DNA from: Nitrospirota bacterium
GTDB lineage: Bacteria; Nitrospirota; Nitrospiria; 2-01-FULL-66-17
Length of the DNA stretch: 58,630 bases
Direction: 5' to 3'
Assembly (NCBI GenBank): GCA_016201825.1
Contig: JACQCD010000067.1
Location: forward strand, 1 to 58,630
Positions 9,558-14,969 of the stretch are shown in pieces. The first letter of the stretch is position 1, and every line of letters starts with the position of its first letter. A program made the position numbers and the translations under genes. Under the pieces are notes generated by a model, which was given only the letters and a program-made list of their open reading frames with translations, was not told where the DNA came from and made no database searches.

Positions 9558-10645
9558 GCGAGCTCTGGAACGAGCGGGATCAGCAGATTTCGGAGGTCCG
9601 CCAGATCGGCGTATTTCTCAATGTTCCGTCGGACCGACCGCAGCGTCGGTGCGACATACGGAAGGTGTGTGGCGCGGCCCTTGACCTTCTCGATGTACAC
9701 GAACCGCCCTGCGGCTTTGAGATTACGCTGCAGGCTCGTCAAATCGAATAGGCGCCGGAACGCGGTTGGATCCTGGAGAGGTCCCTTTGCCACCGAGAGA
9801 TAATATGCGATGAGCCGGTCGACCAGCGGTTCCTCGAGCGTCACGTAGGAATCTCGCAGCAAGGACGCGAGATCGTAGGTCAGGGGCCCCACCAGCGCGT
9901 CCTGGAAATCGATCAGACGGATGCGTCCATCGGCGACCATCAGATTCCGACTGTGGTAATCGCGGTGAACCAGTACGGAGGGGGCCGATGCGATCTCTTC
10001 GGCGATTCGATCAAACGCCATCCGGATCTTGCGGCGCGGCTCCGGGGACACGGCCGCTTCATTGCGGGCTTCGACGCCGTATTCCAGGAAATGCTCGAAC
10101 TCCCAGACCAGAAGGGCGCGGTCGAACCGACGTCCGAACGCCAGGCATTGGGAAGGGGCGGTGTCCGTGGTATCGCCCTGCAGTTTGACCAGCTCGTCGA
10201 GCGCCGACCGATACAGGTTCTCGATTCGCTCGGTCGGCGCTCCCGCAATCGCGTCCCAGAGGGTGACGTCCCCAAGGTCCTCCAGGACAAGTCGACCGCT
10301 TTTCACATCATAATCGTAGATCCGAGGTACTCCGAGCCCTCGCGAACGCAGGTACCGCTGGATGTTCAAGAAGGGGAGCTCGGTGACCGGAAAGTCGGAT
10401 GCAGAGATCGCCTCTTCGGAACGCTTGAAAGCCTCGGGTTCCGCAAGCTCCATGAGGATGAGGGTGGCCGGCACGCTGCCTGCCCCCAATTGAATTCTGG
10501 AATACGTACGGTTCGACGCATCGCCTTTGAGGCGTTCGCATCCGTGGACCGGGGTCGAGAAACCAGAGCGCCGGATCAAATCGTTCAGTTCCCAACTGGT
10601 CCGGTCGGCTGTGTCGGGTGAGGGGGGGATGTGGGGTGTGCTCAT
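9554..10645 (-). CDS. amgK: APH-family phosphotransferase, AmgK-like anomeric MurNAc/GlcNAc kinase
   Basis: GDASNRTY, LEDLGD, VHRDYHSRNLM, IDFQDA, YDLASLLRDSY, QRNLKAAGRF. Confidence 0.82.
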   Translation of the reverse strand: MSTPHIPPSPDTADRTSWELNDLIRRSGFSTPVHGCERLKGDASNRTYSRIQLGAGSVPATLILMELAEPEAFKRSEEAISASDFPVTELPFLNIQRYLRSRGLGVPRIYDYDVKSGRLVLEDLGDVTLWDAIAGAPTERIENLYRSALDELVKLQGDTTDTAPSQCLAFGRRFDRALLVWEFEHFLEYGVEARNEAAVSPEPRRKIRMAFDRIAEEIASAPSVLVHRDYHSRNLMVADGRIRLIDFQDALVGPLTYDLASLLRDSYVTLEEPLVDRLIAYYLSVAKGPLQDPTAFRRLFDLTSLQRNLKAAGRFVYIEKVKGRATHLPYVAPTLRSVRRNIEKYADLADLRNLLIPLVPELA

Positions 10646-10803
10646 CGACGCGCCATTCTGCCATGCCCACCTCCCCCTGTCAAACCATTCGACGTCGCCA
10701 GGGAAGGATGTAAATTTGACTGCCCCGTGTCGAACATGCAACTAAGCTGTGTTCTTTTTGCTGCTAGTATCCTCTCCCCCGATGGTTTTTTCAGCCAGAT
10801 GGC

Positions 10804-10820
10804 ACGGCACACCTTTTGCT
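10804..10820 (+). promoter_or_regulatory. Putative sigma54 (-24/-12) promoter upstream of lpxC
   Basis: ACGGCACACCTTTTGCT: GG at 10806-07 and GC at 10818-19 with exact 10-nt spacing; SD GGGGAG and ATG 10853 follow. Confidence 0.6.
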
Positions 10821-10852
10821 TTTATCATAGACCTGAAATAGGGGAGAGTGTT

Positions 10853-11749
10853 ATGGATGGGTTTCAAGCGGCATCGCAGCAGACCATAGGGCGCGTCGTG
10901 TCGTGCGAGGGGATCGGGCTGCACTCGGGGCGCCAGGTTTCGATTCGGTTGTGTCCTGCCGAGCCCAACACCGGCATCCGATTCCTCCGACGCACTCAGA
11001 CCGGAGATGTCTGGATTGATGCTCGGATCGGCCAAGTGTCAGGGACGACATTGGCGACCAGCTTGGGCCGGGGAGAGAAGGTGGTGCACACGGTCGAGCA
11101 CCTCTTGGCCGCGGCCAGCGGATTGCGGCTCGATAACCTGGTCGTTGAACTGGATGCCGATGAAATTCCGATTATGGATGGGAGCGCCCGACCATTCGCC
11201 GACGCCTTGCTCGGAGCCGGAATCGCTTCCCAAGCGGCGCCTCGGTCGGTCTTTGTGGTGACAGCCCCCTTTGAGGTGCGTGACGGGGCGGGGTGGATCT
11301 CGGTGGTTCCCTCCTCCCGGTTAGAAGTCTACAATACGGTTGAATACGATCATCCGGCGATCGGCCGGCAGGTCTTCGGGTACATCGACGACGGACCATC
11401 CACGTTCGTGGAGTCCTTGGCGGGAGCCCGCACGTTCGGTTTCCTCCGGGATGTTGAGCGACTCAAAGCGGCCGGCTTGATTCAAGGGGGGAGTTTGGAT
11501 AATGCTGTGGTCGTGGGGGCAACCGGTGTTTTAAACGAGGAAGGGCTTCGGTGGGACGACGAGTTCGTGCGTCACAAAACGCTGGACCTTCTGGGCGATT
11601 TGGCGTTACTGGGCGGGACGATGAGGGGGCGAATCACGGCGTTCAAAGCGGGGCACGGGTTGCATTCAAAGTTTGTCGCGTACATGACAGCCCACCCTGA
11701 GGTGTGGCAAGTCCAGATCGCGGACTGTGAAGCGACGATATCTGCTTAG
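10853..11749 (+). CDS. lpxC: UDP-3-O-acyl-N-acetylglucosamine deacetylase
   Basis: QQTI...GIGLHSG, TVEHLLAA, EIPIMDGSA, ARTFGF, GGSLDNA, HKTLDLLGDL, KAGH. Confidence 0.96.
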   Translation: MDGFQAASQQTIGRVVSCEGIGLHSGRQVSIRLCPAEPNTGIRFLRRTQTGDVWIDARIGQVSGTTLATSLGRGEKVVHTVEHLLAAASGLRLDNLVVELDADEIPIMDGSARPFADALLGAGIASQAAPRSVFVVTAPFEVRDGAGWISVVPSSRLEVYNTVEYDHPAIGRQVFGYIDDGPSTFVESLAGARTFGFLRDVERLKAAGLIQGGSLDNAVVVGATGVLNEEGLRWDDEFVRHKTLDLLGDLALLGGTMRGRITAFKAGHGLHSKFVAYMTAHPEVWQVQIADCEATISA

Positions 11750-11813
11750 CCGCCAGAGAGAATAAAACACCCACTAACATGGTTGCAGGGATGTGGGGAG
11801 ACTAGGACAAGCC

Positions 11814-11841
11814 CGGGGGTTCCTCGTGAGAGGAACCCCCG
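11814..11841. terminator. 12-bp GC-rich hairpin between convergent lpxC and the micro-ORF/wHTH unit
   Basis: CGGGGGTTCCTC-GTGA-GAGGAACCCCCG followed by TTT on the plus strand. Confidence 0.75.
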
Positions 11842-11858
11842 TTTCGCGTTGCCAAACG

Positions 11859-11906
11859 TTACTTCTTCTTTGCAGCCTTTTTCTTCGCAGGTTTTTTCGT
11901 CGCCAA
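11859..11906 (-). CDS. Putative 15-aa lysine-rich micro-protein MATKKPAKKKAAKKK
   Basis: TTG start at 11906, strong SD (AGGGGGTGA) 6 nt upstream, TAA at 11861-11859; lies between the wHTH stop and the terminator. Below the ORF-track threshold. Confidence 0.6.
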   Translation of the reverse strand: MATKKPAKKKAAKKK

Positions 11907-11925
11907 GCGTCCTCACCCCCTTTCG

Positions 11926-12441
11926 TCAGGTACCCCCTCCTGGGGTCACCGGTGTTTCTTCGACCAGCTCAAAGGTGTTCGGTGCCACTTTCCGAAAATG
12001 CTTATCACGCCGGAGGGAAATTGCGATTGAGGTAACCGGAGTTTTCCCTCGGATCCGGACGCCACCCTCTACCAGCTTTCGGTACATCTCCTTCGCGTGC
12101 ATCGGTGTTGCCGCTTCTTTCAGAAGCACCATGGCGGCCTGTGGGACACTCATGCCGAGATACTTGGTGCGTCCAAAGAGAATTTCCTGCGATTGGTCGG
12201 GAACGTCGAGAGACACTTTCCCCTTATCGCGTTCTCCCTCACCCGCTGGAGATTGTTTGGCGGCCACCCGAGCCTTTTCCTGCTCAACCCTATATAATGT
12301 TTCCGCCAACTCCAGGTACTTCTTGATCGTCTTAATTTCTTCATCCAGTCGATCGCGCTTCTTTTGGAGTTCCTGGAGCTTGATCTTGTAGGCGTTGATT
12401 CGCTGGTTGAGGCCAGCCAAGATGTCTTGTAACTCTTCCAT
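11926..12441 (-). CDS. Coiled-coil plus C-terminal winged-helix (HARE-HTH-like) putative DNA-binding protein
   Basis: N-terminal heptad-like helix (LQELQKKRDRLDEEIKTIKKYLEL); C-terminal AMVLLKEAATPMHAKEMYRKL...GKTPVTSIAISL....FRKVAPNTFEL. Confidence 0.8.
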   Translation of the reverse strand: MEELQDILAGLNQRINAYKIKLQELQKKRDRLDEEIKTIKKYLELAETLYRVEQEKARVAAKQSPAGEGERDKGKVSLDVPDQSQEILFGRTKYLGMSVPQAAMVLLKEAATPMHAKEMYRKLVEGGVRIRGKTPVTSIAISLRRDKHFRKVAPNTFELVEETPVTPGGGT

Positions 12442-12500
12442 ATGTGTAAGATCCGTAGCATGCCACACTCAGAAGACAGGATTCATTTACAACGCTATGG

Positions 12501-12529
12501 ACTATAGCAAGGCTATAGTTTGTTGTCAA
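12501..12529 (-). promoter_or_regulatory. Sigma70 promoter with overlapping palindromic operator for the wHTH gene
   Basis: TTGACA-17 nt-TATAGT with extended -10 TG; dyad ACTATAGC-AAG-GCTATAGT at 12501-12519. Confidence 0.75.
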
Positions 12530-12641
12530 GCAAAAATCTGCCAGTACAGTTGTGTGTTTGCTATGAGCTGCCTGCACACCTATATGCTATGGTCTAGCAT
12601 AGCAGAAGGAATACCGCGTTATGAAAATGGTTTCTTTTAGT

Positions 12642-14969
12642 ATGCGTATTTGCTATGCGTCACTGAGTAAATGGAGTGTAAGGGCACTGCTCGTTGTGAT
12701 GGCCGGCTGCCAGGGCCAGATTGGCCAGAGTATCCCTCCGGCCGCTCCATCCGTCGGTAATCTTGCGTCGGTGACTCACCAGAGCCGTGTCACGCTCTCC
12801 GGAACAAAGCCTGAAGGAACGTCTCTCTCTATTAATGGCGAGGAAGTCGTGGCTCGCGATGCACTTGAGACTTGGAGCGCGGTGGTCACGCTTTCTTCGG
12901 ACGGGTTGCACACGTTTGAGATAGAGGCGCTCGACGAGCGGGGTCAGATCAGTCTTCCCTTCGTAGTCTCGATCCTCCGTGACACCTCCCCTCCAGCGGT
13001 ACCGACCGTCGATCTGGTCACGTCGCCAGCTTCGGCCAACCCGATCACGCTGACCGGCACCAAGGAAGCGGGAGCCCTGGTGCGGCTCAATGGTCGTCGG
13101 GTCATTCCGCCATCGACGGCCACAACCTGGAGTTACCAGGCGACCCTCGCGACTGGCCCCAACACCTTAACGGTGACGGTCGTCGACGCCGCGGGCAACG
13201 AAAGCGATCCGGCAACGGTGGCTGTGACGTTGACGCCGACATGTGCCGTGTCCCGGTCGGTGTTTCCTCTGGATCGGGCCGCGATCGTGTGGGGCGCGGC
13301 GTTCACGTGGCAGGCCCCGTCTGTCGCCCCTTCGGGGGGCTATCGGTTCGAACTGTCTGCTTCGCCGGCGTTTGATTCGGTCATTGACACGGTCGACACT
13401 TCGTTAGCGCTGTATGCGCCAACGACCCCCACTCCCCCTGCCGGAGTGTACTTTTGGCGCGTTGGCGCGATCGACAGTACCTGCGGCGTGTCGTATGGCC
13501 TGACGAGAATGGTTCTCATCGGGTCTACCACCGGTGACATCAACGGGGATAGATACGCCGATGCGTTGATCGGTGTGGTGGGTGACGATACGGTGGACCA
13601 CGATGCGGGCGCTGCCTACATTGACTATGGCGGCCCATCGCCGGAGGTTCAGCCGGATGTCATCCTTCCCGGCGAGCACCGTCTTGATGGGTTTGGGGGC
13701 TCGGTCGCGAAAGTGGGGGATATCGACGGCGATGGGTACGTCGACGTGCTGGTGGGAGCCTACTTATTCGATCGCGATTTCGATCAACAGGATCACGTGG
13801 GTCGCGCGTATCTGTTCTGGGGTGGGCCGAACATGTCGACTCGGCCTGGGCTGGTGTTCACCGGCGAATCCGATAATGGGGAGTTCGGAGTGTCGGTGGC
13901 GGGCATCGGCGATGTCAACGGCGACGGCTACCCCGATGTGGCGGTGGGCGCGTATAGAGCCACGGTGACGGCGGCATGCGGAGGGGGGACGGCGCGCCTC
14001 CCGGCGGTTGGGCGGGTCTATATCTATTTCGGTGGTCCGCGGGCGACGATGGATTCGAAGGCGGATGTTGTGCTGACGGGCGAGACGACCGTGACCCCGG
14101 GTGAGCCCACGAGTGCCTGTCGGCAGGGCGACGAGTTCGGTGGACGGGTGGCGGGCGTTGGGGATATCAACGGGGACGGCTACGACGATATCGTCGTAGG
14201 TGCCCGCAAATTCGACCTGAACACGGATCCCTCGGATCCCTCGGTCGGCCAAGACGCCGGACGGGCCTATGTGTTCTATGGCGGTCCGTGGCTGGTGGGT
14301 GTAGGGGCTGACCAAGCCGATGTTATTTTCACCGGTACGGCGACCGGTGATGAATTTGGAACGGCAGTTGCGGGTGCCGGAGATACGAATGGCGACGGCT
14401 TTGCGGATCTGGTCGTCGGCGCGCCGCTCCGAGACGAAGCAGGCGCCGAATCCGGGTCCGCGTACTGGTACTTTGGTAACGCCTCGCCATCCACTTCTCC
14501 CGCCTTCCGTCTCGATGGTCTGGCCGCCGGGGATAATTTCGGGTTTTCGGTCTCGTCAAGCGGTGACGTGAATGGCGATGGGTTCTCCGACCTCGTGGTG
14601 GGGGCGTATGTTCCTTTTGATCCTGCGGTCGCTCCCGAGAAGCAGCGTCTTGGGTCGGCCACGCTCTACCTAGGCGGGAGCCCTCCCAGCGGCGCTCCTG
14701 CCGCGAGCTTCGGGGCTGAAGCGGTCGGCGACGAATTCGGCATTGCTGTAGGGGGGCCGGGCGATGTGAACGGGGACGGCTACGACGACGTGATCGTCGG
14801 GGCCTACCGCAACGACGCGTGTTGTGGCAAAACAGGTGAGGGCGGCCGAGCCTACATCTTTCCCGGGGGATCCTCTCTCGTGTCAAGAGGCGCTGCCTCC
14901 GACCCGAAGAATGACTGGATCTTCACCGGTCGGAGCGCTGGGGACGGACTGGGGATTTCCGTCCGCTGA
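12642..14969 (+). CDS. Probable lipoprotein with Ig-like domains and a seven-repeat FG-GAP (integrin-alpha-like) beta-propeller
   Basis: Lipobox-like VMAG-C; two Ig-like repeats (LSGTKPEG / LTGTKEAG...DAAGNES); seven GDxNGDGxxDxxVG repeats. Start is 12621 or 12642. Confidence 0.85.
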   Translation: MRICYASLSKWSVRALLVVMAGCQGQIGQSIPPAAPSVGNLASVTHQSRVTLSGTKPEGTSLSINGEEVVARDALETWSAVVTLSSDGLHTFEIEALDERGQISLPFVVSILRDTSPPAVPTVDLVTSPASANPITLTGTKEAGALVRLNGRRVIPPSTATTWSYQATLATGPNTLTVTVVDAAGNESDPATVAVTLTPTCAVSRSVFPLDRAAIVWGAAFTWQAPSVAPSGGYRFELSASPAFDSVIDTVDTSLALYAPTTPTPPAGVYFWRVGAIDSTCGVSYGLTRMVLIGSTTGDINGDRYADALIGVVGDDTVDHDAGAAYIDYGGPSPEVQPDVILPGEHRLDGFGGSVAKVGDIDGDGYVDVLVGAYLFDRDFDQQDHVGRAYLFWGGPNMSTRPGLVFTGESDNGEFGVSVAGIGDVNGDGYPDVAVGAYRATVTAACGGGTARLPAVGRVYIYFGGPRATMDSKADVVLTGETTVTPGEPTSACRQGDEFGGRVAGVGDINGDGYDDIVVGARKFDLNTDPSDPSVGQDAGRAYVFYGGPWLVGVGADQADVIFTGTATGDEFGTAVAGAGDTNGDGFADLVVGAPLRDEAGAESGSAYWYFGNASPSTSPAFRLDGLAAGDNFGFSVSSSGDVNGDGFSDLVVGAYVPFDPAVAPEKQRLGSATLYLGGSPPSGAPAASFGAEAVGDEFGIAVGGPGDVNGDGYDDVIVGAYRNDACCGKTGEGGRAYIFPGGSSLVSRGAASDPKNDWIFTGRSAGDGLGISVR

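Follow-up and report, generated by a model that had tools for sequence, protein, structure and literature searches.

A 58,630-nt contig from a Nitrospirota bacterium (GenBank assembly GCA_016201825.1, contig JACQCD010000067.1; the whole stretch is called the window here) carries on its minus strand a micro open reading frame (micro-ORF) of 15 codons, directly downstream of a gene for a coiled-coil and winged helix-turn-helix protein of the HARE-HTH family (the HARE-wHTH, or HTH, gene). From sequence comparison we regard it as established that the micro-ORF is truly coding, that it is under selection, and that its initiation site is very strong. Its predicted product, MATKKPAKKKAAKKK, has lysine at 8 of 15 residues, and we propose, with a probability of about 0.55, that it is a free polycationic peptide which binds polyanions, probably DNA, in the manner of a detached histone H1 tail.

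The codons that follow the TTG start are GCG ACG AAA AAA CCT GCG AAG AAA AAG GCT GCA AAG AAG AAG. Exactly 19 nt lie between the TGA stop codon of the HTH gene and this start, and they contain an extended Shine-Dalgarno (SD) sequence, AAAGGGGGTGA; a hairpin begins 17 nt past the TAA stop codon, placed between the micro-ORF and the convergent gene lpxC (Table 1). A preliminary description of this DNA had listed the long SD, the TTG, the 8 lysines among 15 residues, the TAA, the 19-nt distance from the HTH gene, and a terminator-like element beyond, and all of these are present on the minus strand.

Conservation of the micro-ORF downstream of the HTH gene

The HTH protein was used as a query against 61 genomes, its own and those of 60 relatives; 38 gave a match, 37 strong and 1 weak (G007). 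In all 30 loci of relatives that were retrieved, a script found the micro-ORF next to the HTH gene. The SD in these loci is of the type RRRGGRGGTGA, with a spacer of 5 to 7 nt (10 to 11 nt in two), and the start codon is TTG in 28 and ATG in 2; the ORF opens with M-A-T/A-K-K or a near variant, and a terminal lysine run stands directly before TAA or TAG, with a hairpin next. We also searched with a degenerate pattern, SD-TTG-GCN-ACN-Lys-Lys, which occurs about once per positive genome (G050 has two tandem copies), while a reversed control pattern was found in 1 of the 61 genomes and in 1 of 401 genomes phylum-wide. The remaining 7 strong-match genomes proved positive as well, G045, G049, and G055 by sequence and G017, G027, G056, and G057 by the pattern right after the HTH gene, so that every strong-match genome, 37 of 37, carries the micro-ORF; no genome with the HTH gene and without the micro-ORF was found among those searched. 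The genomes searched are kin, so these counts overstate the independent support, and absence here means not found in the genomes searched.

An HTH alignment scan limited to one genome per species found 347 relatives, of which 80 were kept: metagenome-assembled genomes (MAGs) of Nitrospiria, Nitrospira, Nitrospirales, and Candidatus Manganitrophaceae, and one short contig binned as Terriglobales. The micro-ORF is found in 79 of the 80 kept loci, the exception (L060) being a contig that ends 70 nt past the HTH gene. The Terriglobales entry (L039, 2595 bases, titled as a Terriglobales MAG) holds a Nitrospiria-type HTH gene and two micro-ORFs; erroneous binning is a more probable cause of its placement than gene transfer. 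Across the phylum the pattern occurs in 118 of 401 genomes, including 71 of 75 in family f3 and 34 of 40 in family f15, and it extends to another class (5 of 11 genomes in f26, 1 of 6 in f19, and one f35 genome). The five f26 loci that we retrieved contain an HTH ortholog (50 to 62% identity), a micro-ORF of 33 to 39 residues, and a convergent ORF of about 300 aa, which in L116 proved to be lpxC. A convergent lpxC lies 3' of the micro-ORF in 13 of the 15 loci tested, and also in L116, L121, and L122.

Coding signature and initiation site

The coding analysis was carried out on 117 micro-ORFs from 109 of 110 loci, which comprise 83 distinct DNAs. The first codon is a valid start in every one of the 83 (TTG in 71, ATG in 11, and GTG in 1). 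At codon 2, GCN occurs with every possible third base (39/19/5/4), alongside CCN; at codon 3, ACN likewise takes every third base (29/24/5/2), alongside GCN. The largest length class, with a 5-nt spacer and a 39-nt ORF, comprises 25 different ORF DNAs in 45 different contexts. All but one of the 45 contexts (44) encode MATKKAAKKKKK, the variable sites at codon positions 1/2/3 are 2/1/9 of 12, and nearly every site is variable in the 30 nt before the SD and the 30 nt after the stop codon. The SD itself varies by A-to-G or G-to-A exchange only, at the first three and the central positions, with GG.GGTGA invariant. In what we take to be the 16S rRNA tail, the variable SD positions face U, and pairing would therefore be kept as G-U, as anti-SD pairing predicts.

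A search of positions 11500-12700 of the window with the Rfam 15 covariance models gave no match at E ≤ 1. Because the variation within the ORF is synonymous, the flanks are saturated, the SD varies as it does, and no Rfam family is matched, we conclude that purifying selection acts on the peptide and its ribosome-binding site and not on an RNA motif. The residue totals of the family are K 699, A 334, T 105, P 53, R 11, V 10, and S 9, with zero Asp, Glu, and aromatic residues. The K:R ratio is about 64:1, versus 0.23:1 in the organism's own genome, and lysine itself appears to have been chosen specifically over arginine.

The assembly of that genome comprises 2,798,008 bases at 63.2% GC and is 89% complete; its long ORFs have 2.5% Lys and 10.8% Arg. 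A genome-wide search of all six frames for ORFs of 8 to 80 codons in which Lys makes up 40% or more and occurs 5 times or more gave 4 entries (3 distinct ORFs); the micro-ORF is the richest of them in lysine, and no other has an SD in front of it. For the duplex calculation we assumed the canonical 16S 3' tail as the anti-SD motif, the 16S 3' end having not been found in the assembly itself. The SD/anti-SD duplex energy of the micro-ORF is -20.8 kcal/mol, against a median of -7.6 among 6373 ORFs with 150 codons or more, for each of which the best of up to six candidate starts was counted; 3 of the 6373 equal or exceed the micro-ORF, which places its SD in the top 0.05%. The SD at the HTH start is weak in comparison (-4.4). 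Both the SD and the micro-ORF are unpaired in the centroid fold of the window. Taken together, the rarity of lysine-rich ORFs in the genome, the duplex energy, and the occurrence of the pattern against its reversed control exclude an origin by chance.

The preliminary description had proposed an unannotated polycationic peptide gene, to be checked by looking downstream of wHTH orthologs for a conserved SD and a K-rich ORF with synonymous variation. That comparison was positive, and the existence of such a gene is therefore well supported.

The upstream HARE-wHTH protein

The longest ORF of the HTH gene, 11926..12468, has 180 codons and ends in PGGGT; relatives do not share its in-frame GTG at 12468 as a start, and the conserved start is the ATG given in Table 1. 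The translated ORF exceeds the cut-off for Pfam HARE-HTH (PF05066; 27.4 bits versus 25.9) over residues 106-168 of 180, and PF05066 is precomputed on all 120 listed homologs. In public annotation, the homologs are described only as "HTH domain-containing" or "hypothetical." An AlphaFold2 model computed with 17 sequences has a helix at residues 2-62, a low-confidence linker at 64-88, and a winged helix at 99-159, with a mean pLDDT of 80. A Foldseek search of the PDB with this model gave nothing at E ≤ 1e-3; the best matches were the DNA-binding domain of Rok, at the top (E 3.6e-3, rmsd 10.5), the RNA polymerase delta subunit, and Z-alpha domains. The protein is basic (pI ~9.4, net charge +6; net +7 in the wHTH part).

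As modeled, it has the layout of the nucleoid protein Rok of Bacillus subtilis and of H-NS-like proteins: a putative oligomerization helix at the N terminus is joined by a flexible linker to a winged helix that would bind DNA. The match to Rok is weak, however, and the sequence is that of HARE-HTH, the family of the RNA polymerase delta N-terminal domain. The likeness to H-NS/Rok-type nucleoid proteins is one of architecture only, not of membership.

Length, copy number, and persistence without the HTH gene

Family members are 11 to 76 residues long, with M-A-T at the N terminus and KKK(K) at the C terminus. The long forms, of 58 to 76 residues (L026, L029, and L112), arise by expansion of K/A/P repeats; clear Lys/Ala/Pro repeats are seen in these three loci and in L115, while the 15-mer of the window has only about two to three K-clusters. 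Two micro-ORFs in tandem, both provided with an SD and a start codon, occur in 7 of the 80 named loci (L037, L039, L049, L051, L055, L062, and L090) and in G050 (L115, G050:C18:88800-90400, at 676-870 and 1098-1232). Genus g28 of family f15 has two copies, of 64 and 44 residues, with AKKKAPAKKA repeats, and many g28 genomes give two pattern matches 380 to 580 nt apart. Some f15 genomes have a second, distant cassette made up of an HTH paralog and a micro-ORF (L123-L125).

The HTH profile found no homolog in G054, G180, and G227 (99 to 100% complete) or in G101 (70% complete), and G022 gave no HTH match to the single-protein query. The micro-ORF is nevertheless found in all five, by sequence in G054, G227, G101, and G022 and by pattern only in G180. 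In G054 (L111, G054:C1:136400-138300) it stands alone at 1287-1334 on the plus strand between an inositol monophosphatase gene and a convergent lpxC, in a spacer of only about 280 nt, and the SD, the TTG, and the hairpin are kept. A simple scan found no promoter-like site upstream of this lone micro-ORF, a result that is uninformative. Since the micro-ORF outlives the HTH gene, it should have a function of its own.

The HARE-wHTH gene has been lost in genus g31, to which G054 and G180 belong. A different gene lies upstream of the micro-ORF in two lineages of the other class, L121 (G101:C211:900-3900, at 335-1340 on the plus strand) and L122 (G227:C23:25900-29000, at 1555-2124 on the minus strand). 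Its product, some 190 aa long, is a wHTH protein of the ArsR/HVO_A0114-like kind, and in L121 it is followed by a 152-aa ORF without a Pfam match. The gene pair at these loci may be a toxin-antitoxin-like insertion that replaced the HARE-wHTH gene.

RNA-library contigs over the micro-ORF

Public sequencing runs were searched for the ortholog at L027 (HTH gene 1501-2010, micro-ORF 2064-2120); 20 runs contained at least half of the sampled words, and 9 of these are recorded as RNA. Four metatranscriptome runs, from four studies, all have contigs over the L027 micro-ORF. In run X6 a single 760-nt contig covers positions 1423..2182 of L027; it begins 78 nt before the HTH start, takes in the whole micro-ORF, and ends about 60 nt after the micro-ORF stop codon, where the hairpin is expected. 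Other contigs, in X5 and X8, continue into the lpxC side. Run X14 has a 63-nt contig over the SD and the ORF start at a depth of 343, versus 28 for the HTH contig; contig depths cannot rank the parts of a gene, the 63-nt segment is also conserved among strains, and we gave the difference no weight.

In X5, X6, and X8, RNA contigs have loose ends at L027:2040-2114, where contigs of other organisms join at the lysine stretch. The joining contigs carry their own SD and an ATG followed by GCN, and then A/V/K-rich coding sequence, so similar lysine-rich genes of other taxa are represented in the same RNA libraries.

Proposed function of the peptide

We propose that the micro-ORF is transcribed on the mRNA of the coiled-coil/HARE-wHTH gene from the promoter-like site listed in Table 1, that ribosomes initiate on it separately, at a TTG served by a very strong and unstructured ribosome-binding site, and that the transcript terminates at the hairpin common to the convergent lpxC. 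The product would be a free, disordered polycation of about 1.5 kDa, which should be unable to fold because its net charge is +8 over 15 residues. It would bind cellular polyanions without sequence specificity. The first candidate target is DNA, which the peptide would neutralize and compact in the manner of a histone H1 tail, alongside the HTH protein; RNA, ribosomes, and polyphosphate are alternative targets. DNA leads because the sole, weak family likenesses are to H1-like nucleoid proteins and because the constant partner of the micro-ORF looks like a nucleoid-type DNA binder. The peptide and the HTH protein may cooperate, and the peptide may, as the preliminary description suggested, act on the nucleoid or the ribosome.

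The comparison with H1-like proteins deserves detail. The family shares with chlamydial Hc2/HctB (PF07382), the Burkholderiales proteins of NF038053, AlgP of Pseudomonas, and the H1-like domain of Streptomyces DdbA an absence of acidic residues and predicted disorder; its long members also have repeats of K, A, P, and T such as AKKKAPAKKA, and size appears to vary by repeat number, as is reported for Hc2. These H1-like proteins are on the order of 100 to 240 residues or are tails fused to a folded domain; the members described here differ in being typically 11 to 25 residues long and stand-alone, with an M-A-T start, TTG, and an extreme SD. Bacterial H1-like proteins with Lys/Ala/Pro repeats are treated in PMC2848022, PMC9239181, and PMC3643593, and a length of 165 to 237 aa is given for Hc2 in PMC2848022. 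The only family models to which the long members show a match, a weak one, are H1-like: three members scored 17.1, 13.9, and 11.8 bits with Pfam HC2 (PF07382), whose cut-off is 40 bits, the 76-aa and 30-aa forms giving no match and the 15-aa peptide of the window being too short for that scan, and the 58-aa and 64-aa forms scored 19.8 bits with NCBIfam hist_H1_lk_Burk (NF038053), whose cut-off is 80 bits. The resemblance to histone H1-like tails that the preliminary description had drawn therefore holds for composition and fails as family membership, the best scores being 17.1 versus 40 bits for HC2 and 19.8 versus 80 for NF038053. In the ESM Atlas, the 64-aa form led to "hypothetical" clusters of 53 to 89 aa, one with HC2 on 17% of its members; recognition was low (1167), and these are leads only. 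A protein-database search with the 44-aa form returned 40 word-sharing candidates, none at E ≤ 0.01, which is uninformative given the low complexity.

Several observations weigh against a DNA-binding, H1-tail-like peptide expressed in this way. As far as sequence goes, the likeness to H1 tails is purely compositional and falls under every family cut-off tested, and DNA is a candidate target alongside RNA, ribosomes, and polyphosphate. The micro-ORF pattern is found in 0 of 8 genomes of family f2, in the same class, and no micro-ORF was found near lpxC in the HTH-negative genomes G007, G016, G012, and G014; because some families of the class are without it, the micro-ORF is dispensable. The hairpin in the window is without a U-run on the micro-ORF strand, while many relatives do have U-runs. 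The RNA support consists of assembled contigs, which do not show strand, ends, or level and may include DNA; translation is presumed from sequence features, and such peptides would be invisible to tryptic proteomics. Finally, the organism encodes a canonical spermidine synthase of its own (168 bits).

With regard to the last point, a role for the peptide as a polyamine substitute was considered and dropped: spermidine synthase is present, its presence does not track the micro-ORF in 5 genomes, and the PF02784 matches are uninformative. Canonical spermidine synthase matches, in the own genome and two f2 genomes, scored 168 to 174 bits. Two complete genomes gave only weak spermidine-synthase-domain matches (39 to 49 bits), which lie within ORFs of about 530 aa (G044:C1:4091901-4092248 and G056:C1:1074488-1074970).

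Alternative explanations

Among the other roles that might be assigned to the micro-ORF, that of a micro-protein associated with the ribosome or rRNA (a small basic ribosomal component, or an aid to hibernation or assembly, comparable to bS22, bL37, and bTHX) seems unlikely, with more to recommend it than its competitors. The very strong SD would suit a highly expressed product, and survival of the gene after loss of the HTH gene implies a function of its own. The neighbors, an HTH gene and lpxC, provide no linkage to ribosomal genes, however, no ribosomal family is among the NCBIfam or Pfam matches at E ≤ 1, and searches of several other families in the class did not find the micro-ORF. bS22, bL37, and bTHX, the last another tiny basic ribosomal protein, have fixed lengths and specific sequences containing arginine and aromatic residues, which fit rRNA pockets. 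The family, unlike these proteins, is of low complexity and Lys-only, it has no sequence match to them in NCBIfam or Pfam, and its variable length, 11 to 76 residues by way of low-complexity repeats, can hardly be squared with a binding pocket of fixed shape. Ribosomal proteins that are very small, strongly basic, and specific to a lineage nonetheless exist, among them bS22 and bL37 (PMC10081302). The family resembles these two and bTHX in its tiny size, high basicity, and restriction to certain lineages and in having long escaped annotation.

An improbable alternative is that the ORF acts in cis, the act of translating lysine codons being what matters, whether for sensing of Lys-tRNA, for holding a ribosome at the 3' end of the mRNA, or for control of the hairpin and, through it, of read-through antisense to lpxC. 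Its position would suit such a role, between a gene and a terminator and facing a convergent lpxC in nearly every lineage, even where the HTH gene is missing, and the conserved non-AUG start with its extreme SD suggests tuned initiation. Against it, there is no co-directional gene downstream, lpxC being convergent in 13 of 15 loci, and no alternative (antiterminator) pairing, since the ORF is unstructured and the hairpin forms alone in the fold. A leader-peptide attenuator would lie upstream of a co-directional gene and have alternative pairings, an arrangement that was not found here. The M-A-T N terminus, the exclusion of Asp and Glu, the expansion to 76 aa, and the tandem copies point instead to selection on the product.

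We consider it quite improbable that the peptide is a detached C-terminal tail, that is, an obligate partner subunit that supplies the HARE-wHTH protein with a basic, DNA-clamping tail. This idea was put forward in the preliminary description, and it draws on the position of the micro-ORF right after the HTH gene in all 37 strong-match genomes, on the lineages in which the HTH stop codon lies inside the micro-ORF SD or the two ORFs abut (L002-L006, L015, and L017), and on duplication of the whole cassette as a unit. It is weakened by four results. None of the 270 HTH relatives retrieved, whose length range would include such a form, has a fused K-tail; the HTH protein is itself basic and so offers no electrostatic partner; the micro-ORF is kept in the five genomes without a detectable HTH gene; and the distance from the HTH gene ranges from 3 to 224 nt, with phases 0, +1, and +2 mixed among lineages. 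A fusion with the HTH protein by read-through or frameshift was likewise rejected, given the mixed phases, the gaps of 3 to 224 nt, the intervening stop codons, and, in some lineages, hairpins.

A-R-N repeats, as in AAG/AAA runs, are bound by RNA chaperones such as Hfq, and the ORF is far under any gene-caller threshold; even so, a purine-rich noncoding RNA or DNA element (for example, an RNA-binding site in a 3' untranslated region) or a chance ORF is on sequence grounds nearly excluded, for the variation is synonymous-only between saturated flanks, all four bases occur at the third positions of GCN and ACN with positions 1 and 2 fixed, the start is always valid and the stop always directly after the lysine run, there is no Rfam match, and chance has been excluded. 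The specific idea of an Hfq site or 3'-derived small RNA was rejected on the same coding signature, Hfq having not been found in the own genome, at 89% completeness, and no Rfam match having been obtained.

Significance

With a free polycationic peptide as the favored product, a broader proposal can be made tentatively, at less than even odds: that Nitrospirota, including Nitrospira, make a ribosomally synthesized free oligo-lysine, mostly of 12 to 25 residues, as a dedicated counter-ion for the nucleoid, RNA, or polyphosphate, co-encoded with a Rok/H-NS-like protein. If this is true, such genes could form part of a widespread, unannotated class of bacterial "mini-protamines." If the product is a free oligo-lysine, no shorter gene-encoded polycation of the nucleoid type would be known from bacteria, and a synthetic 12-mer together with a cultured host would provide a simple, testable system for histone-tail-like charge neutralization without a folded domain. 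Nitrospira are key nitrite oxidizers and complete ammonia oxidizers in soils, waters, and wastewater plants; to our knowledge, their nucleoid biology is essentially unstudied.

The minimum gene length of Prodigal is 90 nt. Annotation pipelines apply length cut-offs to short genes (PMC11796252), and a gene of 11 to 25 codons is lost to them, yet this one bears peptide-level selection across a phylum and has one of the strongest ribosome-binding sites of its genome. Comparative genomics alone can thus validate low-complexity micro-ORFs. A literature search for four of the peptide strings, which did not extend to supplements, found no paper containing them, and among the matches listed there was nothing relevant on lysine-rich small proteins in Nitrospira or on unannotated bacterial small proteins from ribosome profiling.

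Features of the locus

TABLE 1 Positions of the micro-ORF and surrounding features in the window
Feature	Position	Strand	Details
Micro-ORF	11859..11906	-	TTG start at 11906..11904; MATKKPAKKKAAKKK; TAA at 11861..11859; 15 codons plus stop
Extended SD, AAAGGGGGTGA	11911..11921	-	11 nt; 6-nt spacer to TTG
Hairpin	11814..11841	both	12 bp, G+C-rich, loop GTGA/TCAC; from fold
HARE-wHTH gene	11926..12441	-	171 aa; start ATG 12441 (MEEL, conserved in alignment); stop TGA 11928..11926
Promoter-like site, TTGACA-17 nt-TATAGT with TG extension	12501..12529	-	11/12 matches; consensus scan only
lpxC, convergent	10631..11749	+	Pfam LpxC, E 2e-94

The hairpin, which a terminator scan based on T-runs did not detect, is a probable bidirectional terminator common to the micro-ORF and lpxC. 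The promoter-like site is the only one that the consensus scan found on the minus strand in positions 11600-12700, and from its sequence and position it is likely to drive a transcript of the HTH gene and the micro-ORF.

The longest lpxC ORF has 372 codons, with the LpxC domain beginning at residue 83, and the products in relatives are about 300 to 340 aa; the true start of lpxC is therefore probably well downstream of 10631. On the other side, a large gene for an FG-GAP/Ig-like repeat protein (12621-14969, plus strand) is divergent from the HTH gene. A neighbor of the FG-GAP/Ig-like type is also present in L003, L012, and L020, and other lineages have MurJ or inositol monophosphatase in its place.

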